Part shown: piece after piece, positions 15,001 to 39,565 of the stretch
Position numbering within the stretch: position 1 is the stretch's first letter
Layout: every line of letters begins with the position of its first letter
From: an uncultured bacterium
GTDB lineage: Bacteria; Omnitrophota; Omnitrophia; Omnitrophales; Aquincolibacteriaceae
Direction of reading: 5' to 3'
DNA length: 64,000 nt
NCBI GenBank assembly: GCA_964460795.1
Contig: CAYWRU010000002.1
Coordinates: forward strand, 1,173 to 65,172
The notes under the pieces: generated by a model
Databases searched by the model: none
Told to the model about the DNA's origin: nothing
The model's input: the letters and a program-made list of their open reading frames with translations, nothing else
Translations under genes and position numbers: made by a program

Positions 15001-18000
15001 CGGGTTCCTTGATCATGTTGGGATTATCAAAGCCGGCTTGTTTAAAAAACGCCGCATTTAAAACGCTCAGGTAACCGAGTTTGTTTTTTTCATCGGAAAT
15101 ATCGCGGAGATTTTTACGAATGGGTTCCGATGCCGGAAGCAGGGTCTCTAAAATTTTGATGAAAGGCTCGACTTGAGATATCCCGCTTGAAAAACGCCCC
15201 ATATCTGCGGCACTTACTAACGCCTGACTTGTACCCTCTTTTTTTGTCAGAAAAAGCCGGAGAACGGGTGCAAATAAATCAAGAATGGGAGATGCCCGAT
15301 CAATAAGCTTTTGACGTTCAGCCGGAATTTTATTTTTCCCGCCCGGCCAATCTTGAACGAGCCAATCCTCAAGAGAAAGTGTTTGCGGCTCCGGCGCTGG
15401 CTTGGCTGGCGGCAAAGCAGCCTGTCTTACCGAAGTATCGCGGCGGCGCGCATCTAATAATCGGGTGAAGATATGTCCTATTTCCCGGAACTCCGGGGGC
15501 ATGGTTTTTATCACCGTTTCCACTTCTGCAACAGAACCTGTTTCAAGCATTTTTCTAAAATCTATTAATTTTTGAAAATGGGCCATACGCGTTTCCCAAG
15601 GCTCTCCATTTGACCGAAGTTCACTGCGCAGCGAAGGCGTTAGGGCCCAATTATGAATTTTCTCAACGCTGGCAAGAAAAGCCTCCGGAGAACTGAGGTC
15701 AAAGGATGGAGGAGTATTTTCTTTCTGGACAATGGAAAGCTCTTGGATACGGCGAACGGATGTTCGATAACTTTCAAACACTTGTTCGAGCTCAGTTGAT
15801 ACCTTTTTGGAATAATCCGCCACAGCAAGCTGCTTCATTTGAGTCTCTAATCCGACACTCTGTAGTTTGAGGCTTTCGGATTCGCGTACCGCAGCATCCC
15901 ATTGATGATAAAAATCAGGAAGTCCGCCCTGCCCCGGGGCCGTTTGCTGCATAAAAAAATTCAGGCGGTCACGAAGATAAAAAGCGTTCGCCTCTTTCAA
16001 CATGTCATGAGAGTCCAATCCCATCCATACGATAAACGCTAGATTCAAAGCGATGTAGAAATCACGAGCCGCTGGATCATGAGATCCTTCCGGAGAAATC
16101 TTAAGATAACGTGAAAGAAGCGGCCCTGCATGATCGATCAAAGGCTGAATCATCTTAAATTTTGTTTCCCATGGGAAAATATTATTCTTGTGAAGTTCCC
16201 ACGCAGAGCCTCCCTTAGCGGTTTCCTTTCGAGGGACTAAAAACAAAGCCAGAACGGGAAAAAAGAAATCGCTTAGCGTATCAAACCGGACAAAAAATTC
16301 TGCCCGGTTATCAAATCCCGGATAATTTTGAGCGGCATTCAACCCGGCCTTAGTTTTCAAAAATTCAGCGGATGTCCAGGGACTTAACTGCCGGCGGATC
16401 TCCCGTGCAGACTGATCAAAATTGCTTAATAGCGTTTTATCGGCTCCAACCGGAATGGCGGAAGGCGCTTGAATACCATAAGTGCGCAGTTCATGGTCCT
16501 GCTCTAATTTGAGCTGTGCCTGGGTCGCCTGAAATTCGGCGTCGGTGCGGGTGATGAGCCGGGAATAGAGTTTTCTGGCCTCAAAAGAGCGCGCATGCTG
16601 GCGGGTCTTGGGCAAAAGACGGCGGGAAAGCGCCAACTCTACGAGTAATTTTCTAAGAATGCTCACTTTTTCCTCGGGGCTCATGCCTGCATGAAATGCA
16701 TAGGCCTGGACCACGGCTTCATCATATTCCAATGCAGGAATATCTTCAGACTGCGGAACAGGATCAAGAGGTGATTTCAAAATAACGACTTCAACTTTTT
16801 TCATGGATTTCGGCTTGCTGGCATTTCCATGAAATTCTGCAGCGGGGTCAATCCAAGGTTCTTTCAACGTCAATTCTAACCGCGGAGGAAGATTCAATCC
16901 GCCTTTGGAAGATCCGGCGGGTTCTGCGGGTAAGAAACGGACATCCAAAACTTTTTTAAGGAGAGCCGCCAGCTCATATTCAGAGCGCAGGTAGGGTCTT
17001 AAACCCAGACTTAAATTTGCCCATACCGAAAGAAAATTATCGGCTTCCACGCCGGGCCGCCATTGATGAGGAGCTTCCGATGCTTGTACGGATTCAGCCT
17101 GGGTGTTCAGAACACGCAAAGACGTTACCGTATTTTTGCGAAAGGCATCTAGATCAAGCCGCTCGTCCATGAGAGAAGCGTCGGCCATGACTTTAGGCAC
17201 TTCCGGATCAAGATCCGTATCCAGCCCCACTAAAAGACGGTTTATTTTGTGGCCTTCACGAAGTAAATTCCATAGTGGGTTATTACGATCCGATAAAAGA
17301 CGATCATAATGAGCGGCTGATCCGAGAACCGCGCGCAGTAAAGCATTGATTTTATCCATCCCTCCGAAAACCTTGAAATGAAGCCGGCAAGCCCGTAGTT
17401 CATTCGTTTCAGGATATTTTTTTGCCTTTTCATCATTAAGATAGTCCAATGCCTGCTGAAAAAAATTCCGGTGCAGCTGCGTCCAAAACTCCCGAGAATG
17501 TTCATGCATGCGGGGTTCTGGATGGGCCGCAGGATCAAAGGCAATAATTTTCCGGAGCATGGCCCGATAATAAAGTCCCTTGTCAATCAGTTGGAACTGA
17601 TCAAATAGTTCAGGAGCGAGCGCCTCTGCGTTGAGAGTGCTCCAGACTCCGTCAGCATCCAGACTTTTATACGTGCGTTTTTCAGAAAGTTCAGAGTCTG
17701 TTTGAGCCACATAGACTTTTCCATCCGAGTGAATAAAAAATCCGCTCACATGGTCAAGCGAATAAATCTGACCCTTTGAACGCACGTGTATCTCTAAAGC
17801 GCTCGAATGCGCTTTTATAGAAAACTGAAAAGCTGCTTGGTGAGGATAAGTTTTTTGAATCTCATGGATCCGCCGGCGGATGGCCTCTGCGTCCATTTCA
17901 AAAATCATGTCCCTTAATTCCGAGCGGTTTGAGATTTTTGAAATATTCACGCCCGAAGAAGGTAAAGCATTCTTTCCAGATTCGCCGGGATTGGGTACAA

Positions 18001-21000
18001 AGGGCATAGGTCTGTCCCCCCGATCCAGATCCGCGCCTGGCACATTTTCTGTGTTTTCTGTGATGGATGGGCTCGTTCGCATTTCTGCCCGTTTCACAGG
18101 ACGAGAAAAATCTAAATGCAGGAGGTGGGCCATGGATTCGAGACCGCCTTCGGCGATCAATCGGCCTTCCTCGTAGATCTGCCACCGGTCTTCCAAGGAC
18201 CGTTTTCTTTTAACGATCCAATTTAGCGCTCCGTAATGAGGCTGAATTTTGCAAAAGGATTCGATCAGTATTTTTCCGTGAAATTCTTTTTCCAGCTGGG
18301 CCTTCATAGCCTGAAGAAGTGAGGGAGTGTCGGCAAAGACTCCAATCCGCAGCGGGTCAAGAGAGGATTCAAAACGTAATTTTTCGTGCAGTTTCAGCCA
18401 GGCCTGAAGTCCTGTGGCATTCCAGGCCAAGGCCAGCGGAATTTGATATTCGCTGTCAGGTTCAAATTCATTCGTGGAAAATCCTGCCGCATGTTTAGTC
18501 AAAGACCATCCGTTTCCTTCCCGGGAAGCCTTGTCATCCGTTCCCACGACCTCATCCTGCGAGATTCCGAAACGCTCGGCCATAAAACGGAGGGCCAGCG
18601 CCTTATCAACTCCCTTGACCATGATGTCGATGGAAACCGAAGTGGCCAGAGGTTCAAAAAGATGAAATTTCTGATGAGCATGACTTTGGAGAAATTCCCG
18701 GACCTCTGCAGTCATTTGATTAATCTGACGATTCACTTCGTTTTGAGTCGTCCATTCAGGCTTGATATCCACCCAGGCCGCAAAACCGTATCGTTTGTCT
18801 TCCTTAAACACAAAAGGATGTTTAAACCCCCGCGATTCGAGATGCTTCAAAATATCCTGCAAAATCGCTTCCCGTTCTTCGGGGGTAAAAATGAAATCTT
18901 TGGCAACCACACCGTACTTTTTGACCAAATCCACTTCTTTCCGGACCAAGCGGCCGTCTTCTAATTCGTCCCATGCGGCATAACTTCCGTTTTCGGGAAA
19001 CAAAATAAAGTTGGATAACTCGGCGCCCGAAAGCCCCTCTCGAATGCGGTGCGCCACTTCTGCCACATCATGGACTCCGCGCGCACGCGCATCCGTATCG
19101 GTAACATGTTCAGCTCTTCCGCTGACAAGACCGTAAGGAATTCCTTCACCAAGAAGATTTTGAATTTTCAAAAGCGCAGACTCATCCGCTTCCTTGCTGC
19201 CGTCCGGCGTCAGATTGCCGTCAAAATCCGCCAGTCCCGAAAAATAAGTTTTTTTCAGCGCCGCTTCCAGCCGCCGTATGGCTTCCTCACGTGTGATACC
19301 TCTGATTTCAGAACGGCGATCGGTAGTCGAAGGCTGATAGGTGTACTGCCATTTTTGCCAGTCTTTTGGATTCTGTGCATCCACCGTTTTATGAATCCCT
19401 GGAAAAAGCGAGGGGTGATCAATCATAAAATCCAAAACATGATGCGCTACATAGTATGGATCTTGCAAACGCTGAACCGACGCTCTCTCCTGATCCAGGG
19501 TGATAAGCTTATGATTAAGAGTTCCCCGATCAGCTTTTGATTCCACGGTGAGATTCTTTTTATGCATCTCTCGAAGCCAAATCTCCATTTTCTCCAGATA
19601 CTGAAGCGCTTTATCGTGGTCTTCTTGATAAAACTGCGTCACCCCGGAAGCATCCCAAGAAAAATCAGGCGCCAGATGATGGCTGATGACCATATCGATG
19701 TACAAAATCTTGTTCATCAGAGCTTCATAATCACCCAACGCGCCATGAGTTTTCCATGCCTTATGAATGGCTTCCATGATTTTTAAAACTCTGTCATTTT
19801 GAGAAATGCTTCTTAAGCTTTCTTCACGCCGTTCATTTTCTTGCTCTCTCCAGTTCCAGTAGGATTTGATCCTGAAGAATTTAATCAAATGCCACAGCCG
19901 CGGAACCAAATATAAAAGTCCTCCCACGATCCCCGGGGTCACAAGCGCTAAGAAGATGGGGAGCAGATTCCCGCGCATTTCCGAACGACCAGCCTTGCCT
20001 CCCGCACCGGTGCCTGGCACGCTCTTTGCGCTCTGTGTTGAGGATGGACTCCTGACACGTCCGCGAGTAAAAGGCGCAAAAGAAGCCGCATACACAAAGA
20101 GCAGAGAAAAAATACCCGTCACCGCATACGTTACAACATCCCATGGATCCCAGGTGCCGGCTTCCGTTTTATAAAACTGTCCCTGTTCCTGACCCATCCC
20201 ATCGATCATGAAATAAATGACTCGAAGTACAATCATAATTCGGAGGGTTGTGGCCCAAGTTTTTAAGGTATTCGCGCTGAGCCGGAACAAGGAAAGAATG
20301 ATTAAAAAGGCATAGGTCCAAAGATAAGTAATCCCGGTCACTCCCGGCACGTAAAGAGCATCGTTCAAGTAATGACTTGCAAAAGTCCTGAGAGGTTTCC
20401 AGTCTATAGATGAAGCGCCACCGAGATAACTCACGGACTCGCGATAATACGCAAAAATGCCCAACATCAGAAAAAAGGAAAGGCTGGCATAAGCAAATAC
20501 TTTCGAGTCTCTTAAGCGTTCAATTCCTCTTGAAATGGCACGAGACTGTTTTTTAGGTGCGGACGGAGCAGGGCGTTCGTTCACCTGAAATTCCCGAAAC
20601 GCCAAAACAATCGCCCAAACACCCAAGGACACACCTGCAGCTGACGGAATGAATTTTTTTAGAAACTCGGTTCTGCGGATTGAAGCATAAACTCGATTCT
20701 CGGAAAGCTGCTTTGACTTCAAATGCTCGCGATGCGCCAGCCATACCGAAATGTACCTGATGAAATGTTGTTCAAGAGCCGTTTCAAATTCCTGGCGGGT
20801 TTTATGGTCCCTTTTAAGAAAGAATGTTTCTCCTCTATAATCATTCACACGCAAAAGAAGTCGCCACTGGGCAGGTCCGAATCCTCGTTTGACGCTTTTC
20901 ATGGTGAATTCATGGATTTGAAAATGGATTCCCCGTTTCTTAAGCTCCGCCTCACTGCGCTCATCCGGAGAAGCTGCAAAATACTTTTCGACTGCCGACC

Positions 21001-24000
21001 GCGCAATGGCAGCAAAATCAATATCGCTATATTCAAAAACTGAATGAGAGGCTGTTTCAACGGAAATCTCGACATCGTGAATTTTAAATTTTTGAGGCGC
21101 ATTGAGATGCGGACCGTCCCGAGAGCCATAAAACATGACGGATGCCATAATGCCTGTGAATCGCCCGATCCACATCATCAACTCATCAAAAGTCGCAGCC
21201 CCGTCTTTTTTATCCACGGCTCCGGTACCCCTTCCAAAAGTACGGGGTTCGGTCGTCCGCACCTCGGAGCGAGGAAGTTGAACGGCGCCCGGATGGTTTG
21301 AAGGCAATAAGTGATGGGGAAAATCAGTGACTTCATGGAGGACATAACTCTTACCATCCAAAATCATAGTGTCGAGGAGTTTCAGCGTAAGGCGGTAAGG
21401 GATGGGAACATCCTGGATCGATTCGGCCCGCGATGGATAGACCATCCTGGAGTGCCGATGCTTCGAAAGAAAATAAATTTTCTCAGCGGATGCGAACAAG
21501 ATTTCATTTCCCCTACTGAAACCGTAGTCAACGCCGGTCACTTTTTGAATGCCGGCCTGTTCTTCGAGACGTGAGAGAAGACGTCGAATCTGATAAACTT
21601 TGAGTGCCGTCAAGTAATCCGCTAGGCCCGCAAATATCCCCAAGAAGCTGGTTCCGGCTAACAGCAAACAGGACCCATCCATGACAGTTAAAAAGGGAAA
21701 GCTGGATAAATTCCAGAAAGCAGAAAAAGTAGTGACGAAAATAGACAAGGTAACGAATGGACCGCCCAAGGCAATCAAAACTCTCTGCCTCGCCGTAAGG
21801 CCAAATGGTGTGGTGAAGAATTTAGTGTAACCAGCGGAGACAGAGATGGAAACTCCACGAATGCTGTCCAGGTCTTTCAGCTGGTAATATTTTGCAACCA
21901 TCCAATGCCCCATTTCATGGGACCACACTATGGTGAGATAGCTCAAGGGAAAAAGAAAGAGTGGGATTGCAAACCCACCCAATAGATCACGGATCAATCC
22001 ATTCATGATAAAACCAGCGGTGCTGATAAGAACCAGTATGGCCCAATGTTCGAATCGCCGCCCCAAAAGATGTCTATCCAGAACCTTGTGAAATCGCTTC
22101 ATCCACGAAATTTGTGAACCGCTCAAATGGACGGCGCGAAGTTGTTTTTCAAAAGCGTCTTTAATACTTTCTTTTCCTTCTCGTACTTCAGAGCGCTCAT
22201 GCCTGCTTGTCCGCCGTAGCTTTAGCGAAGGAGGATCCCCCGCGCCGGTGCCTGGCACGTTCTCTCCGAATGTCCCTCTCGCAGTGAAGTTGCCTCTTAC
22301 TGTGGTGATAGTATCCGTTGCGATCTTGAGCGTTGTCATATATCCTGCTTCCATGAAAACCATTGCGGAGGAAACCCATGGTTGAAGCCACCATTGCCAT
22401 CGCTGGAATCGGAATTTTGGTTGCGGTTGTATTTTTTTGGGAACAATACCAGCAAAAACGCCCTCCCCAGAATCCTCGCCGGCCTTCGTAACACCGGAAT
22501 CATCTAACCGAGCCCCACGGGCAGTCATTCCCGGCAAACCGGTGGTGGGTTCGGTTTTTTGGTTTTGAAAGACATAAAAGCCTTCATTGCTGAAGGTTTT
22601 GACAAAACCATGTTTTGCGAGTGTTTTTAAAAGAAGTTGATTGTGCTCATCGGCAGGCTTTCCCTCCCCGTTTCCGTCCGCACCGATAACAAAATGTCCG
22701 CCGTTTTTTAAGACCCTCCGGACTTCTTGGATCGCCTTGTCATAAAATTCCTCGATGCTTTGTCCCGGATCTTTTACGATCAAACCGTGATAATGGGATA
22801 CAAAAAGAAAAATGCTGATCACGGTATCAAAGGAGTTGTCCTGAAAGGGCATGGCTTGGGCTGTGCCGTGAAAATAACCGCGCTTCGGATCATCCGAAAG
22901 ATCTGGAGACAGACCCATCATATTTTTTCCTTGTTTACGAAAATAGGTCACAAGATTCTCATTCAGAACCTCGTCGCTAAAGTCATCATTTTCCACATCA
23001 AGATTTAATAAAGAGCCCTTAAGCAGCGGTTCGACATGGTACCCGTCCGATTCCGCTAGTGCGGCATAAGTCCTCCAATAATTCACATGCCCGGAATAGG
23101 TGGGAGCAAAAATCTCATCACGGCTTCGAACTTCCGCCCGATTCGAGTGAACCCGTGCGCCTGTTTCGATTGAGCCAGTGGATTTTTTTAGGGCATGGGC
23201 GTACTGGCCGACTGGCACACGCGCTGACTGGCTCACTGGCTCACCGGCTAACTGTTTTTCCATTTCACGAATTTGAAGAATGGGGTCCGCGGATTTGACT
23301 TGAAGCGCGGCGGATTCAAGAGCGCGGAGCTCGGCACGTGCTCCGGCAAACGGCATGGACTGCCAGCGCGCGAGACTGCTGAGCGGACGAGCCGTTTGAT
23401 CCGAAAGTTCATAGTCCATAGTCCATGGTCCATAAATTTTTTTTGAGTTTAATTTGGAATTTGGAATTTGAAATTTGAGATTTGTTTCGGATTTCGAGTT
23501 TCGAATTTCAAGTTTTTCAAATGCATACGACCGTCCTATCATCAATTTTTGGTAACGCCGCTGATGCCGTTCGCTGGTGCGCGTAATCATGGGAAGAATA
23601 GATTGGCAGGTAATCCCCTGTTCACGCAGCGCATCCAACACCGCGGGTTTATGAAATCCGCCGAAGACCAGGACGGCTAATTTCTGATCCGGATCGGATT
23701 TAAAATCGCGAATCGCTTTTTCCATGATCCGGTCGCGCGCATGGGCCGTTAAATAAAAACGAATCGCTTTTTTGATTTTGTGCTCCCAGCCTTTTGAAAG
23801 CAGAATGGGCCGGCCGGTTTCATGCGCCAGAAAATCCGCAAGACCATCGGTTTTAAATTCATTTAGAGTTTTCATGGCACGCTTGAACTCTTCGGGGCTG
23901 GCTGTAATTTTTTCGACTTTGCTGAGAAGCGAAAGGGCTTCCAAGGTTTGGAATATTTTCTGCTCGCGGACTCCGGCCAAACACTTCTTCACCCCCTCTT

Positions 24001-24961
24001 TCTCTAAATCGGCTATTTCTTGCTTCAATTCGGTGAGATTGAGGGCCTTTAAAGCCTCGACTTGCTTTTGATCGCTCGACTTTTCTGAGAAAAGAAGCAG
24101 CTTGATTTTGGGAAAAGATCCCGGCGGAAGCGCTCCAAGCTCCAGGGTCGAAAGCGTTTGTTTCAGATAGTCTAAAAGGCCGAGTTTTTCAGATTCATAA
24201 CGCTCCCGCAGTTTCATCCAGGATTTGAAAGCCGGGGGAAAATGCTGCATCCCTAAATTTTGAAATTCCCGGGTGAGCTCGGAAAGATCCTCTTCAATCG
24301 ACTCACGGACTCGAGCAGCTTGGCCATACCAAGCGATGTTATCGCGGTAATATTTCAGACTGTCCGCGCCAATCAATCGAAAATCGAGTCCATGGTCCCC
24401 GCCTGCCGCTTCGCTCCGGCGGGCAGGCATGGTCGATGGTCCATAGTTGGATTTTTCACTTTGGTTTTTTGGACTAAGGTCTGTGGACTGTGGTCTATGG
24501 ACTTGCGGCGTCCGCCGCAGGATATGCGCATACTCAGCTCCCCCGATCCGGAGATGATCCATCAGGAAATAGGCAATGCGCTGACGGATTTCGGGACTTT
24601 GGATGTCCTGAAAATATTTGTCCGTGGGAACTTCGCCTTCGTAGCCTTCTTCGAAAACGGTCTTAACTCCCCGGTGCTCCACAAGGTATTGGACAAGTTT
24701 GGCGATGTTTTCCTGCGCCTCTAGGGAGTCGTGAGCATCCTGGATGTAGAGGATGGTCTTGGCAGCGGGTGCAGGGAAAAATCCATCCACACGGCCGATG
24801 GATTCAGGAATAGAAATGACGGACGAAGCCGATCCAGTCAATGCGCTTTGGAGTCCGAGAGAGCTGGCGTAACCTCCGGTGTCACTCCAAAGAAATGAAG
24901 CAATGACGATCAGCGCGCATAGACGTCGCTTCCATAGATAGATGGAAAAAAAAGAGTTCAC
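1..24961 (-). CDS. Giant multidomain membrane-anchored protein. This is the 5' 24.96 kb (8,320 complete codons) of an ORF whose stop lies beyond the left window edge.
   Basis: The minus-strand frame with codons starting at + coordinates = 2 mod 3 has an in-frame TAG at 24968-24970. No frame-2 ORF is reported anywhere below it. All 16 short minus-strand ORFs listed for 1-25000 are in the other two frames, so any frame-2 stop would have produced a long listed ORF. The track evidently drops ORFs that lack a stop in the window. The start is GTG at 24959-24961 with AGGA at 24966-24969. The N-terminus VNSFFSIYLWKRRLCALIVIASFLW looks like a signal anchor. I checked the frame by hand at more than 25 positions spread from 404 to 24722. 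Confidence 0.85.
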   Translation of the reverse strand, partial: MNSFFSIYLWKRRLCALIVIASFLWSDTGGYASSLGLQSALTGSASSVISIPESIGRVDGFFPAPAAKTILYIQDAHDSLEAQENIAKLVQYLVEHRGVKTVFEEGYEGEVPTDKYFQDIQSPEIRQRIAYFLMDHLRIGGAEYAHILRRTPQVHRPQSTDLSPKNQSEKSNYGPSTMPARRSEAAGGDHGLDFRLIGADSLKYYRDNIAWYGQAARVRESIEEDLSELTREFQNLGMQHFPPAFKSWMKLRERYESEKLGLLDYLKQTLSTLELGALPPGSFPKIKLLLFSEKSSDQKQVEALKALNLTELKQEIADLEKEGVKKCLAGVREQKIFQTLEALSLLSKVEKITASPEEFKRAMKTLNEFKTDGLADFLAHETGRPILLSKGWEHKIKKAIRFYLTAHARDRIMEKAIRDFKSDPDQKLAVLVFGGFHKPAVLDALREQGITCQSILPMITRTSERHQRRYQKLMIGRSYAFEKLEIRNSKSETNLKFQIPNSKLNSKKIYGPWTMDYELSDQTARPLSSLARWQSMPFAGARAELRALESAALQVKSADPILQIREMEKQLAGEPVSQSARVPVGQYAHALKKSTGSIETGARVHSNRAEVRSRDEIFAPTYSGHVNYWRTYAALAESDGYHVEPLLKGSLLNLDVENDDFSDEVLNENLVTYFRKQGKNMMGLSPDLSDDPKRGYFHGTAQAMPFQDNSFDTVISIFLFVSHYHGLIVKDPGQSIEEFYDKAIQEVRRVLKNGGHFVIGADGNGEGKPADEHNQLLLKTLAKHGFVKTFSNEGFYVFQNQKTEPTTGLPGMTARGARLDDSGVTKAGEDSGEGVFAGIVPKKIQPQPKFRFQRWQWWLQPWVSSAMVFMEAGYMTTLKIATDTITTVRGNFTARGTFGENVPGTGAGDPPSLKLRRTSRHERSEVREGKESIKDAFEKQLRAVHLSGSQISWMKRFHKVLDRHLLGRRFEHWAILVLISTAGFIMNGLIRDLLGGFAIPLFLFPLSYLTIVWSHEMGHWMVAKYYQLKDLDSIRGVSISVSAGYTKFFTTPFGLTARQRVLIALGGPFVTLSIFVTTFSAFWNLSSFPFLTVMDGSCLLLAGTSFLGIFAGLADYLTALKVYQIRRLLSRLEEQAGIQKVTGVDYGFSRGNEILFASAEKIYFLSKHRHSRMVYPSRAESIQDVPIPYRLTLKLLDTMILDGKSYVLHEVTDFPHHLLPSNHPGAVQLPRSEVRTTEPRTFGRGTGAVDKKDGAATFDELMMWIGRFTGIMASVMFYGSRDGPHLNAPQKFKIHDVEISVETASHSVFEYSDIDFAAIARSAVEKYFAASPDERSEAELKKRGIHFQIHEFTMKSVKRGFGPAQWRLLLRVNDYRGETFFLKRDHKTRQEFETALEQHFIRYISVWLAHREHLKSKQLSENRVYASIRRTEFLKKFIPSAAGVSLGVWAIVLAFREFQVNERPAPSAPKKQSRAISRGIERLRDSKVFAYASLSFFLMLGIFAYYRESVSYLGGASSIDWKPLRTFASHYLNDALYVPGVTGITYLWTYAFLIILSLFRLSANTLKTWATTLRIMIVLRVIYFMIDGMGQEQGQFYKTEAGTWDPWDVVTYAVTGIFSLLFVYAASFAPFTRGRVRSPSSTQSAKSVPGTGAGGKAGRSEMRGNLLPIFLALVTPGIVGGLLYLVPRLWHLIKFFRIKSYWNWREQENERREESLRSISQNDRVLKIMEAIHKAWKTHGALGDYEALMNKILYIDMVISHHLAPDFSWDASGVTQFYQEDHDKALQYLEKMEIWLREMHKKNLTVESKADRGTLNHKLITLDQERASVQRLQDPYYVAHHVLDFMIDHPSLFPGIHKTVDAQNPKDWQKWQYTYQPSTTDRRSEIRGITREEAIRRLEAALKKTYFSGLADFDGNLTPDGSKEADESALLKIQNLLGEGIPYGLVSGRAEHVTDTDARARGVHDVAEVAHRIREGLSGAELSNFILFPENGSYAAWDELEDGRLVRKEVDLVKKYGVVAKDFIFTPEEREAILQDILKHLESRGFKHPFVFKEDKRYGFAAWVDIKPEWTTQNEVNRQINQMTAEVREFLQSHAHQKFHLFEPLATSVSIDIMVKGVDKALALRFMAERFGISQDEVVGTDDKASREGNGWSLTKHAAGFSTNEFEPDSEYQIPLALAWNATGLQAWLKLHEKLRFESSLDPLRIGVFADTPSLLQAMKAQLEKEFHGKILIESFCKIQPHYGALNWIVKRKRSLEDRWQIYEEGRLIAEGGLESMAHLLHLDFSRPVKRAEMRTSPSITENTENVPGADLDRGDRPMPFVPNPGESGKNALPSSGVNISKISNRSELRDMIFEMDAEAIRRRIHEIQKTYPHQAAFQFSIKAHSSALEIHVRSKGQIYSLDHVSGFFIHSDGKVYVAQTDSELSEKRTYKSLDADGVWSTLNAEALAPELFDQFQLIDKGLYYRAMLRKIIAFDPAAHPEPRMHEHSREFWTQLHRNFFQQALDYLNDEKAKKYPETNELRACRLHFKVFGGMDKINALLRAVLGSAAHYDRLLSDRNNPLWNLLREGHKINRLLVGLDTDLDPEVPKVMADASLMDERLDLDAFRKNTVTSLRVLNTQAESVQASEAPHQWRPGVEADNFLSVWANLSLGLRPYLRSEYELAALLKKVLDVRFLPAEPAGSSKGGLNLPPRLELTLKEPWIDPAAEFHGNASKPKSMKKVEVVILKSPLDPVPQSEDIPALEYDEAVVQAYAFHAGMSPEEKVSILRKLLVELALSRRLLPKTRQHARSFEARKLYSRLITRTDAEFQATQAQLKLEQDHELRTYGIQAPSAIPVGADKTLLSNFDQSAREIRRQLSPWTSAEFLKTKAGLNAAQNYPGFDNRAEFFVRFDTLSDFFFPVLALFLVPRKETAKGGSAWELHKNNIFPWETKFKMIQPLIDHAGPLLSRYLKISPEGSHDPAARDFYIALNLAFIVWMGLDSHDMLKEANAFYLRDRLNFFMQQTAPGQGGLPDFYHQWDAAVRESESLKLQSVGLETQMKQLAVADYSKKVSTELEQVFESYRTSVRRIQELSIVQKENTPPSFDLSSPEAFLASVEKIHNWALTPSLRSELRSNGEPWETRMAHFQKLIDFRKMLETGSVAEVETVIKTMPPEFREIGHIFTRLLDARRRDTSVRQAALPPAKPAPEPQTLSLEDWLVQDWPGGKNKIPAERQKLIDRASPILDLFAPVLRLFLTKKEGTSQALVSAADMGRFSSGISQVEPFIKILETLLPASEPIRKNLRDISDEKNKLGYLSVLNAAFFKQAGFDNPNMIKEPGALAAVRQTFIKLIQERFDPSGEWANLLDRVEVTDQRPEVAAEPGHDGALASLWEIVLQNPTDLLMALETQAEAVKEQLTQEKFQSTDFKVFVRPWKTASQFEEVAAQIAQEFVPQSDQANEKLRVLQLDKVEKFKNFILLLRTWRDMPEAESKKKKLFAAGIAYREIFLALSPEEQGRLSGCIKGVITFQADLEHRTQIWKGLLGGVERFLDPAKGDLSRAKEKLKALELQPLLPGMDETILHLARLKKTIQDREAAILAEKADRNARSGKIKTQTLLLDHADTLMRQLEKALEKNLVPESETLSSNKEEIEKNWAAASEPDLMDRVSKQRTRLEGILKNAADLKEVQEKAAAAEKLRLEQAAQRQKVQTLFDQALKSLQAGDVETAEAQYLAAKEALPPEMKPEFHETIKEVGHQVYQAKTRQVSSLSIPPRDLAPPSEPAKKVETALQTEARRIYELARQKGEWGGLNGFVQGVIQQLMSGKTLSSGDARRFRKYDPGQFKNEVHEAISVLAQSNLRSEIRAHTRPLSKAQKKWLKKRAGLYGEKLHELLQETSKAIRENDKAAFAQSMDSIKRLSDLLLRYGLMSSMSIYDINNPLAALETMGEIGDDLRKGKTRKEQMLQRLRMHARFLIRYSRSSKPTKFYTIKIYPKNFTEIHEVEPVRYDGSKPLELIFSPILTSGKPYQKRFVALPFTLRELEQVIEYKTRKKDPAEVKKYLEAYAQDGFGPVDFSRAQHRTRSSQRSEVRMGEETEMGLSDPLALTTTRLAGLVKGNSELVESFERRHLLTVPDDDRPYVLLDIENTELAIQEAEENIAELRERLPHLPEHVQSTIRNLLYRYEQKRSRLLGFKEVITGFIKNPQHASLKPWVGKNAYLIDELQKAQKRSEIRKINPNFAFDHAQRKASTAGNRSEVRGASSPNELEVSTPTKGNLDAASATQWNESAVFFPPSGFHLPGREARELYEFSEKVQAMYARMNQRMQRLLNDPQFDITPQFTPSNDSLFVMPDNPGLNPGAIRHPDFGPRLGGRGDNLNLNPLAEEPVLKRHLAITAHQMALWEALKELMKGSHPAAVLGASRGVAAAYYASGALSPEDAAELVYRGTQFLEAVARLSGERQMAVVSNISFGEAEKFLEEHHAALSVQYSDKRFAVSFPKGKGESLQQVVESRGGKFLLVLHDITSHDPSLVNEKTQDLFKGYREFLTSLKSRMKRPEIPLYSVLRPGELLDSPEKIIEEEIGSITHSLHLEKALPALIQKTDAKNVIGLGYGKNYFLQRLVKEGAIAPSVTASQALDSAGLQAIQESLNRSEIRSQPLEVQSTATLKFHMHERASTQIYGKYLANLSDPDEFEWRYRLIKKGRMGEEEFIVSPLGLLMNATELQPGAQIRIYVRSSQYSKEILDRLVTYAAFVFSHHEEVGTESVIDRIPTSASEKLILEERNRLVEDLFKLGLDLRPRPLDEMLEQLLKAQPKNDAADTSRSESGLKSVPPQTASRWRISPEQAEEVYGKIYTEMAQVPGWNGAVFRKSRTEFGYYASSDPKDLPGLVKELNLASHEPITFLDLGSGQGDLLFALALLNPNLHLIGIEGMQGFVRDGFEILDALVFQTPRIRNQIQMHAVDFYGTAASRLISKADVLYYYGFGTWDEQQLADTLAKSMKPGARFIVYKNFENIHPLLLATERFECLQGPNLQDSDSPFRTYQLRARSELRKSRAALRAFDTIISYFSTADFTLYELMSKISDVGRGGLHKALQQLLQCRLIRELEGLRNHAKIYRLNLQDLKRINEVEFLLGEFTERDNVAILAEQFQRIHDAQPLFSIPKEPVHFSQKLSEFGVSNVSTVHLNTYLIFEFMQNHFTDYPVRASSMFSLTEGMTQTTFNKQLGFLKELGLIYQSDKGGTINPADKKADLWFLAPKFADLQRTALGNALKNYAYHHNLEALKLQIQQALAGHAVEFKIPQPSTDADAADAELQKLFPEATGASSETPMSLGRFLSALEEVQKETQHPRENQIAKKMGITSFRLRRWARAYKINLRELGVWGLQFPKSKERFEVLIDQALQRLRQGNPVYQIMPIPLNDFAKELHVAGTDSIQNTALQYGIPLAQKGIVVPEVFMKLDSNASRILEAKARDHLAALGIKTPSLAAISYVLGAGNVRTTYASWLSAHGATQADAPLTETERTLLIPYYQHWRESLPVQRRNAKTQYIQKLIQTAEKRWQAAVHYRDATMGVRAKEALSAMGQETPAVSLRKKQHEKPEPPKPPALHMQTGMTGLKHLGMVRLARDKIERDKKRSEVRAEFNLEPINLAFGNPKAGIVFAEKLARYFPKGFPDDLDIEAIRKHWERKYRIRLTGVDLEPLFLAALEMKGQVPPLSSYNILRPAEPIDTASLFESDEADIILDRIRLVKQIYGRLSFESRKILMTPAVLAVFLGLRPAYVQGSVFDASDPSISPLYEELSRWHRVEDLGIGLVFTNTCIFSPYLLGAEVLGKKDLLLLTGSVDPEAKSHLDWLGEAYENNDLERFSEYSIALFSSLFDWMVRNPVSEPVIMGTFLGYPDSVIEDYHHAASEGELSRLKQQYLDFLGISISVKGESGYLQEEAERYLQKIEEALYEAYAYLKQEPDFKKIAEELSLPYQVFERQPMSFDYRNPESNGDSFLPSEKAGSESGVKVRRAPLLLNPPSEKPAELQGIQVASRSEATRVNLLALGESILRMEEQRWNRLLNGKKRYEQLLDYFRGRLHDSVASAAELQKEIEQYVEVPGLLDEEAVVSAALRLATQDPDQIEGRILEMASTVQQENDTAIQNASGRFKDVLAKHEPLWKNIAYAKNTASKLAARLHWENPIVETPYVTLAIHQMLYVVVLSVIQILNEPDFASRPETENVIAFLKWLEKQPKLMEEKVAEGEKPRLQPLGDLVLGALYLLSNTQDETAGAHLVASNLWALDVVIDRYNIRDDDKAELASEGKLAYQEFLPQFKPQNGIRFFEQAKPAAQAKIKKHLGKTTRHLRREVALPILASAVEGEEDRLEVLVDNSILDWFPSLDVQAMARFIQRFKGSLSGEEAFFFEKWKEDPNEALIPLWAKERGMTVQEAEQIFDRMMYQMRLAAVDSKIMTRDEFVRVLKIVELQKKNQKARTQRFRTGILRPLRDSSAALPTRIRWSSAQTVSKTPPRSEMRNAEEVVEKIFKNPVYGRDFIRQFRAPQKAQKQRGKAWKLLSNAETLILNEHFGVSAGEPNKSLEQITADHGMTMAATLHSFRYALQKILHNFDSYFPESSSQPLQYLQWNHTDYHGDMAFGYYGSPGMVQLYRSGDILRYKVSLKDRPIGTAAIAVRHGSIAYTEVTLPSPEDYELQSLLRYRLNEFMPRPLSESRSEMRSKKIAALLARHPQDLAGLSLNQAAGVMGILVSRLHAYFKKHPEASKQGIVLGHKPDAEHVLPEHLKNSDFVAKVLPDDGDEWTPLTEIEQRVVRDFYGLKGASKKSHLEIAKESGRSDRRDSNNFLRSARVKLESFYELGLWNEGPTPEVLNRETDFGFLGYSYRIGLPRWIKGLRENLGIKTLEQLRNASDKDLLGIPALGKIKLQQIKDFLAAYHLEKTPEGSAKRSELRKERRNTQEIFRGLQTKEMGIIFAEVMPEMTQEARDSAAQMVRNFSSVRKLYEEAAQSLKVSMESLTTQNADGISPPVFHLLTALLYQTALYKTWEENLHGKLKPAFLTGRGLGLVPAMLVSGAVTVHDFFPVLKKCLEKMDTQRRPYGVMTLQGTDIEMKSLLHKNPGEPGLVLLHDALPVSADFGFSHESSDALLHFPVQAPLFNESTRETDYRDFGRIDYPVWDLQTQYPFLSPETQMEILVALSRIPYHGVSMPVLSSSARKEKWLRSGADFQTAIADALSHPIYWSQLVKNLNNLSSEIKIKILVMMGAHDSLETITQDLAPQRSVVSLNTDHAVLQAVLGLMGVKGGFIFPWKSTVPPTTLSVETAVPGISVKIKTLEPGYWAESAWEEIKKQAADFPMKAEDIQWLETALHAGPLEAVFVEYPLDPLDPKLGTRIWLQSLISVHHQITFELPERAHLHSKAIQKALNTHRNDPEKIMSKQMQSLPFSVSLVKEDHAFGVHLVLDHRHPILVEVMKSRENDAVTSAMPPAIISVPAPSSMVNISKNPKIQIEVHPEVLSHLRDGRDGLPFLLSEMANQGFYFSHYATLRDIERIVASGAWYTVQIFPAPVTPSDSGNEGAIWVRSPLRRGLPHHLSTSDYHVYRIPTSLLPPDPSLIQSLSPELRERLAEETGLPIHEVRKRGLDPVADPARLNIYLNGTLVSNWLPNWGEDFYRKLENQRKVLAWLQTFPMGEHVTPQNPQLYRVLFEGPNRLFIREASWDVRADRDLPSEPGVAVAHPMNAIHRKGDTPSIVSPPKIPSVAPPPGYETPRDDQPDWHWQAAPDETLLITSGSEERDDGTYPFGDEEQDAPYQHPASRNNISIKAGPELAAAKAQKEDFVKRMRTHFLSLSWEEARREAFIEALFPFYQKWEKQAKQRDVNRPEKIFDEEVKVVLKRLQGVPQDQALEAVKVLAEKAPSANFVFYLDESLAQSLPVYPADEVREKLRDLIQRITVLDGKISRKNFVSAEWNIQDFRTEIFRLHRSIPGLSGEGHQREIYSLVMDILYETFRQASAFANQIKVRFGPMINALPDEEDVFRLLSRHPNEGIGLVVEVRFGNGSFEQLFQAFMFSGVSSDDFAYGFGLFLKKLQEANQPRLLTLFGPHYSQFPPVTGLDIILQRNGHSYPVPLTKLIRKTLEIGDPNQAALEFANGLGRMHLSEEKIFPRMATLTFPNASAADIDSVMHAPEPPAAPRSEVRLVQDQQKVVPRGRSEVRTKPMPTYLKKQEFMNALFPDRGRTWTPLTDFQAKLTKSFYGLKGEIKKNAAALAQQEGKKDRRNIDNFLQQARLKLESFYKLGIWRQDLTLQAWHEIMHRKTDFRFLGKAGVKLNQVHIRTLQQLLEILNSSHP
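149..331 (-). other. Sigma-70 region-4-like HTH module (copy 3, paralogue of 4460-4642)
   Basis: WTPLTDFQAKLTKSFYGLKGEIKKNAAALAQQEGKKDRRNIDNFLQQARLKLESFYKLGIW. It is followed at 1-110 by ...GVKLNQVHIRTLQQLLEIL, which resembles the start of another alpha-CTD-like HhH. Confidence 0.45.
3560..4140 (-). other. Second FabD/acyltransferase-like module with the nucleophile elbow degenerated (GRGLG instead of GxSxG)
   Basis: PAFLTGRGLGLVPAMLVSGAVTVHDFFPVLKKCLEKM, with GRGLG at 3851-3865 (frame verified). The layout is similar to 11150-11990 but lacks the serine. Confidence 0.35.
4240..4385 (-). other. RNA polymerase alpha-subunit C-terminal-domain-like helix-hairpin-helix module
   Basis: LPRWIKGLRENLGIKTLEQLRNASDKDLLGIPALGKIKLQQIKDFLAAYHL, compared with the alpha-CTD pattern L-x-LS-x-R-x2-N-x-L-x3-I-x-T-x2-DL-...-LL-x3-N-x-G-x-KS-x2-EI-x3-L. 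Confidence 0.4.
4460..4642 (-). other. Sigma-70 region-4-like HTH module (copy 2)
   Basis: WTPLTEIEQRVVRDFYGLKGASKKSHLEIAKESGRSDRRDSNNFLRSARVKLESFYELGLW. This is a paralogue of 149-331. Confidence 0.45.
5215..5380 (-). other. Sigma-70 region-4-like HTH module (copy 1)
   Basis: KLLSNAETLILNEHFGVSAGEPNKSLEQITADHGMTMAATLHSFRYALQKILHNF (frame verified 5282-5374). It follows the region 4.2 pattern L-x2-E-x2-hL-x2-hFG-...-(S/T)LEEhG-...-AL-x-KL. Confidence 0.45.
9650..9840 (-). other. Winged-helix (MarR/ArsR-like) HTH-like module
   Basis: YELMSKISDVGRGGLHKALQQLLQCRLIRELEGLRNHAKIYRLN (frame verified at 9722-9780). Pattern resemblance only. Confidence 0.3.
9990..10400 (-). other. Class-I SAM-dependent methyltransferase-like module with an intact glycine loop (DOT1-like spacing)
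   Basis: FLDLGSGQGDLLFALALLNPNLHLIGIEG (10256-10321, frame verified) is followed by VDFYG...ADVLYYYGFG...MKPGARFIVYKNFE. Confidence 0.55.
11150..11990 (-). other. FabD / acyltransferase (malonyl-CoA:ACP transacylase fold)-like module with an intact GxSxG
   Basis: AAVLGASRGVAAAYYASGALSPEDAAELVYRGTQF...RQMAVVSNISFGEAEKFLEE...KFLLVLHDITSHDPSLV. GASRG is at 11756-11770 (frame verified). The order of motifs parallels GHSLGE...MAAV...HS of FabD/AT domains. Confidence 0.5.
18470..19240 (-). other. HAD-superfamily (subfamily IIB-like) phosphatase module
   Basis: The DxD nucleophile motif is SGLADFDGNLTPD (19202-19240, frame verified). A C-terminal VKGVDKALALRFMAERFGISQDEVVGTDDKASREGNG (about 18510-18640) resembles HAD motifs III/IV. 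Confidence 0.6.
19890..20660 (-). other. Polytopic membrane block (about 6 predicted TM helices)
   Basis: Hydrophobic stretches: FIPSAAGVSLGVWAIVLAF, VFAYASLSFFLMLGIFAYY, GITYLWTYAFLIILSLF, TLRIMIVLRVIYFMIDG, VVTYAVTGIFSLLFVYAASFAPF, LLPIFLALVTPGIVGGLLYLVP. Confidence 0.6.
21560..22080 (-). other. Membrane-embedded HExxH zinc-metalloprotease-like module (peptidase M50 / site-2-protease-like)
   Basis: IVWSHEMGHWMVAKYY (HEMGH = 21905-21919, frame verified) lies within hydrophobic helices (WAILVLISTAGFIMNGL, FAIPLFLFPLSYL). A downstream ALGGPFVTLSIFV resembles the M50 GP motif. Confidence 0.55.
22670..23060 (-). other. Class-I methyltransferase-like module with a degenerate SAM-binding motif I
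   Basis: The post-I/II/III region is typical of the Methyltransf_11 type: GYFHGTAQAMPFQDNSFDTVISIF...EVRRVLKNGGHFVIG (22681-22885). The position expected for VLDxGxGxG reads SLLNLDVENDDF (22979-23014), with no glycine loop. Confidence 0.45.
23407..23434. repeat. Family-A half element (left-arm type), in frame inside the giant ORF
   Basis: The sequence gttcatagtccatagtccatggtccata encodes IYGPWTMDYEL and directly abuts the family-B element. Confidence 0.55.
23435..23524. repeat. Family-B low-complexity element (AAATTCGAA / TTTCGGATTTCG stutter), in frame inside the giant ORF
   Basis: The sequence is aatttggaatttggaatttgaaatttgagatttgtttcggatttcgagtttcgaatttcaag. Its reverse complement aligns with 44761-44800 (gaaattcgaaactcgaaatccgaaacaaatctcaaa versus aaattcgaatctcgaagcacgaaatccgaaacaaactcaaaaa). 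It encodes FEKLEIRNSKSETNLKFQIPNSKLNSKK. Confidence 0.65.
23560..24790 (-). other. ChaN / TraB / Tiki (EreA-like) superfamily-like module, interrupted by an in-frame repeat insertion
   Basis: The N-terminal motif KTILYIQDAHDSLEAQ (24731-24760) resembles a GE-H-x-x-H/E motif. The C-terminal motif LAVLVFGGFHKPAVLDALREQG (GGFH at 23651-23662) resembles GxxH. Motif-level resemblance only. Confidence 0.35.
24428..24506. repeat. Family-A palindromic element (GTCCATAG-type stutter arms), full copy, in frame inside the giant ORF
   Basis: The sequence is catggtcgatggtccatagttgg / T-rich loop / actaaggtctgtggactgtggtctatggacttgc. It aligns arm-for-arm with 32102-32181 and translates as VHRPQSTDLSPKNQSEKSNYGPSTM. 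Confidence 0.7.
24860..24961 (-). other. N-terminal signal peptide / signal-anchor segment of the giant protein
   Basis: Hand translation gives V(M)NSFFSIYLWKRRLCALIVIASFLWSDTGGYASSLG: a basic KRR followed by a ~14-residue hydrophobic stretch. Confidence 0.5.
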
Positions 24962-35808: not shown

Positions 35809-35890
35809 GAAACCAGTAACCAGTTGCCAGTAACCAGAGATAAAAAGTTAGACTTTCAATTCTGGTTACCGGTTAATGGTTTCTGGTTAC
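35809..35890. repeat. Stutter-arm inverted repeat (CCAGTAAC word) filling the lysC-cimA spacer
   Basis: The sequence is gaaaccagtaaccagttgccagtaaccagag / 22-nt loop / ctggttaccggttaatggtttctggttac. By my count 22 of 29 arm positions are complementary. The right arm overlaps the lysC stop codon (35887-35889). Confidence 0.65.
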
Positions 35891-37119
35891 TTCTTTCGTT
35901 TTGGTCCTTTATCGAGTCCAAACTCTTTGTGAATAGCGCGGATCGCGTCTTTACCGCGTGCGCCTTCGACCACGCAAGACACTTTAATTTCCGACGTCGA
36001 GATCATATCAATATTAATCTTTTGAGCCGCCAGAGAGCGGAACATGCGTGCCGCGATTCCCGAATGCGCCTTCATGCCCACGCCCACGATACTAACCTTG
36101 GCAATGTGCTCATCGCAGCTCACATCTTTGGCGTCCAAATCTTCCGCTGCTTTTTTGACAATTTCCATGGCCCGCCGAAGTTCATTTTTATAAACAGTGA
36201 AAGAAATATCGGTCGAGTGCGTCTGCGTTTTGTTTTGAATAATCATATCCACATTCACATTGCCGTCCGCAAGACGCGCAAAAAGCTGGGCGGCGATGCC
36301 GGGCCGGTCCGGGACTTGAAACAAGGTAACCTTCGCCTCGTCTTCCGTGAGCGCCACGCCGCTGACCACAATGTCTTCCATTGATTTTGATTCTTTGGTA
36401 ATCAAAGTACCCTCCCCTTCATGCTGAGAATGACGAACCACAATCGGAATATTAAATTTTTTCCCGACTTCAATCGAACGCGAATGCATGACCTTAGCGC
36501 CCTGGGCCGCCAGTTCTAAAATTTCATCGTAACTAATGACATCAATCTTTGCCGCATCCGGCACTAAGCGAGGATCCGCGGTATAAACGCCGTCTACATC
36601 GGTATAAATTTCGCAGGTCTTTGCACCCAGCGCTTTAGCAAGCGCCACGGCCGTCAAATCCGATCCGCCGCGTCCGAGAGTGGTAATTTCTTCATTCTCG
36701 GTCTTTCCCTGAAAACCGGCCACAATCACCACAAAACCGTCTTTCAAGGCCTTGCGAATACGCACCGTGTTGATATCAACGATGCGCGCTTTCGTATGAT
36801 ATTGGTCTGTCAAAATTCCCACTTGCGGACCGGTAAAAGAAATCGCCTTTTCGCCGCGTTCTTGAATGGCCATGGCCAAGAGCGACACCGAGACCTGTTC
36901 GCCAGTGGAAAGCAGCATATCCATTTCCCGGTCACAGGGATCTTTTGTAATTTGTTCCGCAAGCGAAATCAAATCGTCCGTCATATCGCCCATGGCCGAG
37001 ACCACAATGACGAGCTGATGACCTTTTTTCTTCGCTTTAATGACCCGGGCCGCAACCTGTTTTATTTTTTCAGGATTTCCAACCGACGTTCCGCCAAATT
37101 TTTGAACTAAAAGAGCCAT
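35887..37119 (-). CDS. lysC: Aspartate kinase
   Basis: 410 aa with LVQKFGGTSVG and C-terminal tandem ACT-like regions. Confidence 0.9.
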   Translation of the reverse strand: MALLVQKFGGTSVGNPEKIKQVAARVIKAKKKGHQLVIVVSAMGDMTDDLISLAEQITKDPCDREMDMLLSTGEQVSVSLLAMAIQERGEKAISFTGPQVGILTDQYHTKARIVDINTVRIRKALKDGFVVIVAGFQGKTENEEITTLGRGGSDLTAVALAKALGAKTCEIYTDVDGVYTADPRLVPDAAKIDVISYDEILELAAQGAKVMHSRSIEVGKKFNIPIVVRHSQHEGEGTLITKESKSMEDIVVSGVALTEDEAKVTLFQVPDRPGIAAQLFARLADGNVNVDMIIQNKTQTHSTDISFTVYKNELRRAMEIVKKAAEDLDAKDVSCDEHIAKVSIVGVGMKAHSGIAARMFRSLAAQKINIDMISTSEIKVSCVVEGARGKDAIRAIHKEFGLDKGPKRKK

Positions 37120-37140: not shown

Positions 37141-37212
37141 CTTTCAGATAGCAGATCACAGATATCAGACGAATGTTTTTTATCTGCTATCTGCAATCTG
37201 GCATCTGATATC
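37141..37212. repeat. Stutter-arm inverted repeat (CAGATAGC word) filling the apgM-like/lysC spacer
   Basis: The sequence is tcagatagcagatcacagatatcaga / gaatgtttttta / tctgctatctgcaatctggcatctga, with 21 of 26 positions complementary. Confidence 0.65.
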
Positions 37213-37215
37213 TTT

Positions 37216-39489: not shown

Positions 39490-39565
39490 CAGTCTTGAGT
39501 GGTGAGTCTTGAGTATTGAGTTAAGCCATTCTCCAACCCACTACTCACAACCCCGCACTCACAAC
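39490..39565. repeat. Stutter-arm inverted-repeat-like element (TTGAGTG word) filling the hom-thrC spacer
   Basis: The sequence is cagtcttgagtggtgagtcttgagtattgag / loop / ccaacccactactcacaaccccgcactcacaac. One arm is G/T-rich and the other C/A-rich, and complementarity needs bulges. Confidence 0.45.

Follow-up and report, generated by a model that had tools for sequence, protein, structure and literature searches.

The region studied here covers the first 2,295 residues of a giant protein encoded on the minus strand of contig CAYWRU010000002.1 from an uncultured Omnitrophota bacterium, within a stretch of 64,000 nucleotides that was analyzed as a whole and is hereafter called the window. Judged from sequence comparisons, two elements of this protein, a conserved N-terminal head and a short linker motif of the form R-[SA]-E-x-R, define a large paralogous protein family specific to Omnitrophota. 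By analogy with the MARTX toxins, we tentatively propose, at somewhat less than an even chance, that the R-S-E-x-R linkers are substrates of the head and that these giants are autoprocessing polyproteins. The reading frame is open from window position 24967 to position 2 (8,322 codons) and continues past the window edge; its first start codon is a GTG at 24961 with AGGA located 5 nt upstream. Residue i of the protein corresponds to window positions 24964-3i to 24962-3i, the stretch under study ending at 18077. Every element that a preliminary description of this region had listed was recovered in its place on the minus strand. The longest known proteins are encoded by Omnitrophota. Whether these giants stay in one piece or undergo cleavage, and at which sites, is an open question according to West-Roberts et al.

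A homology search using residues 1-1700 retrieved 118 proteins of 946-2,950 aa, and the part common to the query and to all 118 was limited to residues ~10-480, which share 30-44% identity. Downstream of this head the homologues carry unrelated methyltransferases, glycosyltransferases, radical SAM, HAD, NUDIX, kinase or sigma-factor regions. In GTDB representative genomes 181 head loci were confirmed, all belonging to Omnitrophota or to unclassified metagenome-assembled genomes (MAGs), with five or six head paralogues present within single genomes; the close relatives of the giant protein likewise all originate from Omnitrophota MAGs. The invariant residues of the head are D75, A76, H77, E105, G106, E143, R149, R409 and G434-G435-F436-H437, and D75-A-H77, E105 and GGFH437 are unchanged in 22 out of 22 aligned sequences. 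The motif H-x-x-x-E ... GGFH, from which a ChaN/TraB/Tiki-like module had been proposed, is therefore real and conserved among the aligned head homologues. Complete members of the family additionally possess a conserved C-terminal tail of ~45 residues ending in -[AS]-A-COOH, which was found in 21 of the 22 ORFs with a real stop and in 86 of 121 database proteins (examples among related loci such as L025, L066, L042 and L079 and proteins P0001-P0066 are ...LVVQMAA, ...VFARAA and ...AIAWSA). This tail may resemble the extreme C-termini of type I secretion system (T1SS)/RTX substrates or else -AA degron or PDZ-ligand tails.

The TIKI superfamily comprises Tiki1/2, TraB/PrgY, the erythromycin esterases EreA-C, Bcr135/136, ChaN and RRSP. 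Its signature consists of two histidines and two glutamates (2His/2Glu; E3900, H3902, E3930 and H4030 in RRSP), the catalytic pair of Bcr135 being H85-E113, and RRSP, a MARTX effector, is a metal-independent and sequence-specific endopeptidase of TIKI fold (PMC6254334). The head displays this signature in a 2His/2acid form (D75-x-H77, E105 and H437) with Asp replacing the first Glu, and its His-to-Glu distance of 28 equals that of Bcr135 (H85/E113) and RRSP (H3902/E3930). The best natural PDB matches found by Foldseek for an AlphaFold2 (AF2) model of the head (pLDDT 80.5, pTM 0.72) were EreC 6xcq (probability 0.95, E-value 8e-3), Bcr135 3b55 and EreC 6xcs, with 2rad also detected; the top three extended over 374-387 columns with probabilities of 0.80-0.95, E-values of 8e-3 to 3e-2 and TM-scores of 0.17-0.25. 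The head shares with the superfamily the succession D/E-x-H, E 28 residues on and GxxH as well as a conserved Arg, and with the Ere enzymes a helical insert between two halves, albeit a much larger one; it differs in being always fused behind a signal peptide and ahead of modular cargo, and in having no Pfam profile match. TraB_PrgY_gumN, Erythro_esteras and Cofac_haem_bdg indeed gave no match in the protein, in 22 family members or in their consensus at E-values up to 10, a PDB sequence/profile search with the head returned none either, and a single one of the 22 members matched DUF5694 (0.0054). The catalytic signature and, marginally, the fold support the head as a putative hydrolase domain of the TIKI superfamily. 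The proposed ChaN/TraB/Tiki likeness consequently holds clearly for the catalytic signature and marginally for the fold, but finds no echo in sequence profiles.

The second constant of the family is the linker motif. The strict form R-S-E-[VILM]-R occurs 18 times in the giant protein as compared to 0.04 copies expected from shuffled sequences, and 21 copies of R-[SA]-E-x-R are obtained when R-A-E-x-R is counted; across the remaining ~39 kb of the window, no strict copy was found in ORFs exceeding 150 codons. The top five pentamers in homologues are RSELR, RSEVR, RSEMR, RSEAR and RSEIR, and those homologues that are devoid of the strict form carry RAEVR, RSEAR or RAELR. In a set of 80 head loci, the head ORFs contained 273 strict motifs in 221,000 residues, whereas among the 38 remaining ORFs with a complete 5' end and a length of 600 aa or more, 34 were free of strict copies. 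Six strict copies were located outside head ORFs, five of them in two ORFs of locus L022 and one in locus L037; the two motif-bearing L022 ORFs lie downstream of the head match and are probably frameshift-split parts of the head gene. The Ser and Arg codons vary between copies, which rules out a DNA-level origin of the motif as a repeat or RNA element and indicates that selection acts on the motif peptide. A weak codon bias was observed: the first Arg is specified by a CGN codon in all 21 sites (window 404-23338), AGA/AGG accounting for 21% of the Arg codons of the gene, and the Glu by GAA in 18 of 21. Two RSEVR copies, at aa 8165 and 8182, are separated by 17 residues.

The flanks of the motif are weakly biased, with small residues and Pro before it and Ser/Thr, then acidic residues and Pro after it, and in the AF2 models of the head and of the M50 module discussed below the motifs fall in segments of low pLDDT. 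The median spacing between motifs is 334 aa, and the first copy is found at a median of 104 aa past GGFH (interquartile range 87-117), an amphipathic segment following the motif at this fixed distance after the head. Blocks of homology shared by the cargo of different family members begin, in the median, 11 aa downstream of a motif, and 75% of them do so within 40 aa as compared to 12% under random placement; all Pfam matches in the giant protein lie between motifs, and the M50 module is bounded by them. On sequence grounds, R-[SA]-E-x-R is therefore a family-wide punctuation between interchangeable cassettes. Another peptide, VPGTGAG, lies 10-20 residues upstream of both RSEMR-1659 and RSEVR-923 and is encoded by a 30-nt direct repeat (87% identical, window 20001-20030 and 22239-22268); it was rejected as a family linker element, being a local DNA duplication that is absent from the homologues.

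The N-terminus of the giant protein reads KRR and then LCALIVIASFLW, and the AF2 model contains a helix at residues 5-25. The same N-terminal anatomy, with a hydrophobic core of ~13 residues, is found in 91 of 101 complete homologues. Since the core is that short, a Sec signal peptide fits better than a 20-residue anchor; the N-terminal signal noticed in the preliminary description is present, but it is more likely to be a cleavable signal peptide than the signal anchor then suggested. According to Kyte-Doolittle analysis, four transmembrane (TM) candidates surround the HEMGH sequence (aa 972-990, 996-1014, 1061-1079 and 1096-1114) and six more follow (aa 1437-55, 1488-1506, 1541-59, 1568-86, 1609-27 and 1669-87), in agreement with the ~6 further helices announced. 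Beyond aa 1687 only isolated, moderately hydrophobic stretches were detected (aa 2891-2909, 5737-55, 6167-85, 7036-54 and 7262-80; Kyte-Doolittle 1.5-1.9). The statement that no hydrophobic helices follow window position ~19890 is approximately right, although these stretches remain and that at aa 6167-85 may be a TM helix.

Parity of the four plus six helices assigns one and the same side of the membrane to the head, the segment 1115-1436 and the C-terminal chain of ~6,600 residues. The face bearing HEMGH and D1115 is on that same side, as are all linker motifs except RSEMR-1659, and the mismatch of compartments between protease and linkers that would have argued against self-processing is absent by this reckoning. 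For the soluble parts, 'outside' is implied by the signal peptide and agrees with the signal peptide plus TM (SP+TM) class reported for such proteins, whereas loop charges and the canonical M50 orientation imply 'inside'. If the N-terminus is indeed a signal peptide, the soluble modules, albeit of cytoplasmic type, would be outside the producer's cytoplasm.

The HEMGH sequence occupies aa 1015-1019 (window 21919-21905), where it had been reported as the mark of an M50/site-2-protease-like module, and stands directly behind the hydrophobic helix 996-1014. When scanned alone, the module matched only Peptidase_M50 (E-value 1.4e-4, 21.8 bits, profile positions 6-106 of 221), this single-sequence score being below the Pfam gathering score of 27.2. 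A profile built from three Omnitrophota modules was aligned by hhalign to canonical M50 with a probability of 97.1% (E-value 5e-11) and, among PDB entries, matched the Aquifex site-2 protease (S2P) 9j82 (E-value 0.001), MjS2P 3b4r (0.064), SpoIVFB and RseP. The profile-profile score and the matches to solved S2P structures establish, at the level of sequence homology, that the HEMGH module, however divergent, is a true M50/S2P homologue; the expected match to a metalloprotease family is therefore significant, and HEMGH does not belong to a soluble non-protease fold. A further profile, A2, matched a PF02163+PF00571 (CBS) protein (E-value 4e-10), a result that is not independent because A2 includes the canonical M50 protein P0121.

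A word-indexed homologue search with the M50 module gave no match. When 1.84 billion representatives were searched exhaustively, three proteins emerged: P0119 (4,775 aa), which has a normal head and contains seven motifs; P0120 (3,694 aa), whose head is divergent and in which RSELR occurs seven times; and P0121 (a classical M50+CBS protein of 350 aa, 43% identical over 117 residues). HEMGH is kept in all three and in P0122. P0119 and P0120 are the only two other proteins found to carry such a cassette among these representatives; it is flanked by linker motifs in all three carriers, and it is present in none of the 118 head-bearing homologues.

The M50 alignment shows no variation in HExxH, in a conserved Gln or in the GP helix RQRVLIALGGPFV, which contains G1067-P1068. 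HEMGH occupies the canonical intramembrane position. In an AF2 model of the module, whose confidence is low (pLDDT 57), helix, hairpin, helix and helix follow one another in the expected order, with strands at module residues 107-123 between two helices; the Foldseek matches of this model (AcrA, PilZ and others) were discarded as meaningless given its poor pLDDT. P0120 preserves the second M50 motif, NxxPxxxxDG, in canonical form (NFLPIRGSDG), and P0119 comes close to it (NLLTGSDG). The query lacks the motif and reads F-A-G-L-A-D-Y at the corresponding position, with loss of N and P and a deletion of 3 to 8 residues. D1115 lies at the end of TM 1096-1114, shares the membrane face of HEMGH, is alignable with the canonical Asp and may be the surviving third zinc ligand. 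MDG (aa 1094-1096) was rejected for this role since it aligns with MGG of a genuine M50 protein and lies on the membrane face opposite to HEMGH. Because the second motif has lost N and P, the catalytic competence of the query module is uncertain, even though D1115 aligns with Asp. In comparison with M50/S2Ps such as RseP, SpoIVFB, MjS2P and Eep, the module retains a TM helix that ends in HExxH, a beta-hairpin (predicted), a TM helix with GP, an Asp ending the next TM helix and profile-level homology to PF02163 and solved S2Ps; it departs from them as an internal cassette of a giant protein, without PDZ or CBS domain, with AGLADY in place of NxxPxxxxDG, with a single-sequence score under the Pfam threshold and, should the signal peptide of the query be functional, with an inverted orientation.

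In the model that we favor, residues 1-2295 would constitute the start of an exported, membrane-tethered, modular protein. The constants of the family would be the Sec-type signal peptide, the ~430-residue head and a string of interchangeable cassettes, each preceded by R-[SA]-E-x-R in a flexible linker, the first cassettes here being, in order, a presumably dead methyltransferase fold, the M50/S2P module with its four TM helices, one module with five TM helices and another with one, and a HAD phosphatase. The head would recognize the R-S-E-x-R linkers and hydrolyze the chain there, either in cis or between copies, thereby freeing the cassettes from an autoprocessing polyprotein that would be functionally MARTX-like, and the M50 and TM cassettes would be cargo keeping the precursor or some of its products in the membrane rather than a general processing enzyme. 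This mechanism appears the most economical because the head combines a hydrolase fold with an intact signature and belongs to a superfamily that includes a sequence-specific endopeptidase; since the motif is confined to head-bearing genes, a head and a motif that work together would be the simplest arrangement. The head is preferred over the M50 module as processing candidate because it is universal and the module sporadic. The suggestion of self-processing by a protease encoded in cis, made in the preliminary description, survives inasmuch as both modules are real homologues of protease-containing families, but the M50 module, missing from 118 of 118 homologues and itself a motif-bounded cassette, has to be given up as the machinery of the family. 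A bolder version, possible yet doubtful, would make R-[SA]-E-x-R the cleavage site of the head and the large and giant multi-enzyme proteins of Omnitrophota Sec-exported polyproteins that cut themselves into dozens of enzymes, whose destination might be the periplasm, the cell surface or else a host or prey cell, with the -[AS]-A tail as a second sorting or control element.

Several points weigh against an action of the head on the linkers. Fold support for the head is marginal (Foldseek E-value 8e-3, TM-scores of 0.17-0.25), and sequence profiles from Pfam, NCBIfam and the PDB all failed to detect the head, also with the family consensus as query. Esterases and non-enzymes (Ere, ChaN, PMT) are likewise members of the TIKI superfamily. 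We infer the cutting of the linkers indirectly, from the position of the motif at cassette borders and its co-occurrence with the head, and a strict pentamer could equally be a docking or sorting signal. In some members the last motif is located 7-17 aa before the C-terminus, inside the conserved tail, where a cleavage site would serve no obvious purpose. Finally, the signal peptide would put SAM-, ATP- and phosphoester-dependent cassettes outside the cytoplasm, in conflict with the positive-inside rule and the M50 orientation, which put them inside.

Three other explanations were weighed against the same observations. The chain might stay uncut as an intact, membrane-tethered multi-enzyme scaffold, with R-S-E-x-R as a docking or recognition motif for the head, an export machine or a partner. 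We hold this to be possible, if somewhat doubtful: the motif is strict but short, has weak flanks and recurs in the conserved C-terminal tail as well as at a fixed distance past the head with its amphipathic segment, and published analyses regard each such protein as a single polypeptide with many enzymes and give no data on cleavage. However, a scaffold gives no reason for a hydrolase with an intact catalytic signature to head every such protein, and the location of the motif in low-confidence linkers rich in Pro, Ser and acidic residues at cassette borders is typical of processing sites. An unlikely explanation is that a separate protease acting in trans (an Arg-specific serine protease, S8 or C39) cuts the linkers, the head being an esterase, a lipid or cell-wall hydrolase or a ligand binder. 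Its appeal lies in a motif that begins and ends with Arg, which would suit trypsin- or kexin-like enzymes, in the esterases of the TIKI superfamily and in the S8 and C39 domains reported at the N-termini of other Omnitrophota giants. Yet no conserved neighbor gene, whether a dedicated protease or a secretion system, adjoins the 80 head loci, none of the 20 neighboring ORFs scanned in the window encodes a protease, and the near-exclusive confinement of the motif to head-bearing genes in these loci is most simply explained by a joint action of head and motif.

It appears very improbable that the C-terminal soluble modules are freed from the membrane anchor in cis by the membrane-embedded M50 module, whether by itself or jointly with the head. 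Genuine homology (Pfam E-value 1.4e-4, 97.1% profile-profile, 9j82 at 0.001), intact HExxH and GP elements, a plausible third ligand in D1115 on the same membrane face and the parity that assigns linkers and catalytic face to the same compartment would all be compatible with such a role, and TM 1669-87, situated directly after RSEMR, could be an S2P-type substrate. These arguments are outweighed by the distribution of the module, absent from every one of the 118 head-and-motif homologues, found in two other carriers among 1.8 billion representatives and bounded by motifs like any cassette, by the loss in the query of an NxxPxxxxDG that P0120 keeps and P0119 nearly keeps, and by the low single-sequence score (21.8 versus 27.2) and model confidence. 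Moreover, S2P enzymes cut TM segments after a site-1 cut and not soluble linkers.

The internal cysteine protease domain of MARTX toxins cuts after Leu. The giant protein shares with these toxins a very large exported chain, unrelated enzyme or effector modules, linkers and a protease domain, here a candidate, in the same chain, and the MARTX effector RRSP provides a TIKI-fold, site-specific endopeptidase (PMC6254334). Here the N-terminal TIKI-like head takes the place of the cysteine protease domain as candidate, the cargo resembles housekeeping enzymes, cleavage is proposed by us, and neither RTX repeats nor a cysteine protease domain (C80) gave a Pfam or NCBIfam match in the 8,320 residues. 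For Omnitrophota proteins of the 'multi-enzyme metabolic cluster' class (bioRxiv 10.64898/2026.06.07.730766) and for the Archaeovorins (bioRxiv 10.1101/2023.11.21.568195), autoproteolysis by C39/S8 has been proposed, and both preprints describe the cleavage points as unknown. The 'multi-enzyme' giants share with our protein the phylum, the mixture of methyltransferases, HAD proteins and acyltransferases and the SP+TM topology class, but differ in their proposed proteases, C39 and S8 instead of a TIKI-like head. A term search of the two preprints found no mention of the conserved head, the R-S-E-x-R motif or the conserved tail, and a literature search for RSEVR/RSELR/RSEMR or an Omnitrophota polyprotein found nothing relevant, its coverage being incomplete and an earlier description elsewhere possible. 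Relative to the literature searched, where we found neither described, head and motif appear to be new.

The interest of the region accordingly lies in the head-plus-motif architecture and not in the M50 module, a rare cassette. A head with an intact hydrolase signature in hundreds of paralogues and a punctuation at cassette borders provide testable candidates for an enzyme and its cleavage sites, and the motif offers a simple rule for splitting giants into modules for structure prediction. The topology paradox is also sharpened, with cytoplasm-type enzymes lying behind what is more likely a signal peptide, and it bears on a possible export of enzymes as cargo from these ultra-small bacteria to a host or to prey.

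Table 1. Features of the giant protein and their positions in the window.
Feature	Residues (aa)	Window positions	Strand	Remarks
Giant ORF		2..24961	(-)	>8,320 codons; GTG start at 24961; C-terminus beyond window start
Sec-type signal	1-35	24857..24961	(-)	KRR n-region, 12-residue hydrophobic core, polar c-region
Head, TIKI/erythromycin-esterase-like fold	~50-480	23522..24814	(-)	alpha/beta core, large helical insert
Candidate catalytic residues of the head	D75/H77; E105; GGFH with H437	24731-24739; 24647-24649; 23651-23662	(-)	
Protein-specific head insert	152-192	24386..24508	(-)	low pLDDT; opens with in-frame 7-nt repeat array
First linker motif, RAELR	542-546	23324..23338	(-)	105 aa past GGFH; family median 104 aa
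Linker motif RAEVR	608-612	23126..23140	(-)	
Degenerate class-I methyltransferase-like module	613-922	22196..23125	(-)	Pfam match aa 696-759 only; motif I lost
Linker motif RSEVR	923-927	22181..22195	(-)	
Divergent M50/site-2-protease module	928-1230	21272..22180	(-)	4 TM helices; beta-rich C-terminal part
Key residues of the M50 module	HEMGH; G1067-P1068; candidate third ligand D1115	21905-21919; 21758-21763; 21617-21619	(-)	
Linker motif RSEVR	1231-1235	21257..21271	(-)	
Unknown-family module	1236-1658	19988..21256	(-)	~200 soluble residues, then 5 TM candidates
Linker motif RSEMR	1659-1663	19973..19987	(-)	loop TM 1609-27/1669-87; sole motif on other face by parity
One-TM module	1664-1882	19316..19972	(-)	TM helix aa 1669-87 and helical soluble part
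Linker motif RSEIR	1883-1887	19301..19315	(-)	
HAD/Cof-type phosphatase-like module	1888-2290	18092..19300	(-)	motif I D-F-D-G-N intact
Linker motif RAEMR	2291-2295	18077..18091	(-)	lower bound of the stretch under study

Among the other cassettes, the methyltransferase-like module matched Methyltransf_11 with an E-value of 5.5e-7 (3.4e-8 for the module alone) at profile positions 45-95 of 95, that is, the C-terminal half only. The position of the Gly-rich motif I (E/DxGxGxG) reads LLNLDVENDDF, and because LDVENDD replaces the Gly-rich loop the fold is rightly termed degenerate, as it had been before. The HAD/Cof-like match spans aa ~1893-2199, and ~6,000 residues of soluble enzyme-like cassettes follow the HAD module. 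In this downstream part (window 2-18076, aa 2296-8320) we noted two FabD-like acyltransferases at aa ~4370-4630 (GASRG) and ~6960-7080, a DOT1/class-I methyltransferase at aa ~4860-4990, and segments resembling HhH or the RNA polymerase alpha-CTD or, weakly, sigma factors.

The genes upstream of the giant ORF are housekeeping genes encoding Maf, GT2, PMT_2, ValRS, LeuA, aspartokinase, homoserine dehydrogenase and GlnA. LpxB, LpxI, LpxC-FabZ and BamA are also encoded in the window, which indicates that the source organism is a diderm. The largest neighbor 'cluster' obtained from the 80 head loci arose artefactually from the antisense strand of the head, and the second largest was an MsbA-like ABC exporter (ABC_membrane + ABC_tran). 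In the window such an exporter is encoded at 41910-43661, within 10-17 kb of head genes, and it is found near the head gene in 8 of the 80 loci (L025, L028, L032, L035, L053, L063, L077 and L078); this proximity probably reflects synteny with lipopolysaccharide (LPS) genes and not a dedicated exporter.

Tandem arrays with a 7-nt period are common in the window, with 4-5 copies of units such as AGTCCAT, TGGACTA or AATTTGA. They were found in the giant gene (23406-23515 and 24470-24503), in the ValRS gene (31573-31598 and 32102-32182) and in intergenic spacers (35811-35891, 37144-37213, 39491-39565 and 44808-44876), often as inverted pairs in the spacers and in some cases in frame within coding regions. 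The in-frame arrays of the giant gene coincide with the head insert at aa 152-192 and with the low-confidence segment aa 483-519, and an identity of 85% links the copy at 24474-24506 to that at 32153-32185. These arrays look like a genome-wide, insertion-prone class of repeats that genes tolerate in frame. The catalytic domain of ValRS (30663-33488) extends over 581 residues for 405 profile positions and hence contains large insertions, which overlap at least in part with 7-nt arrays.

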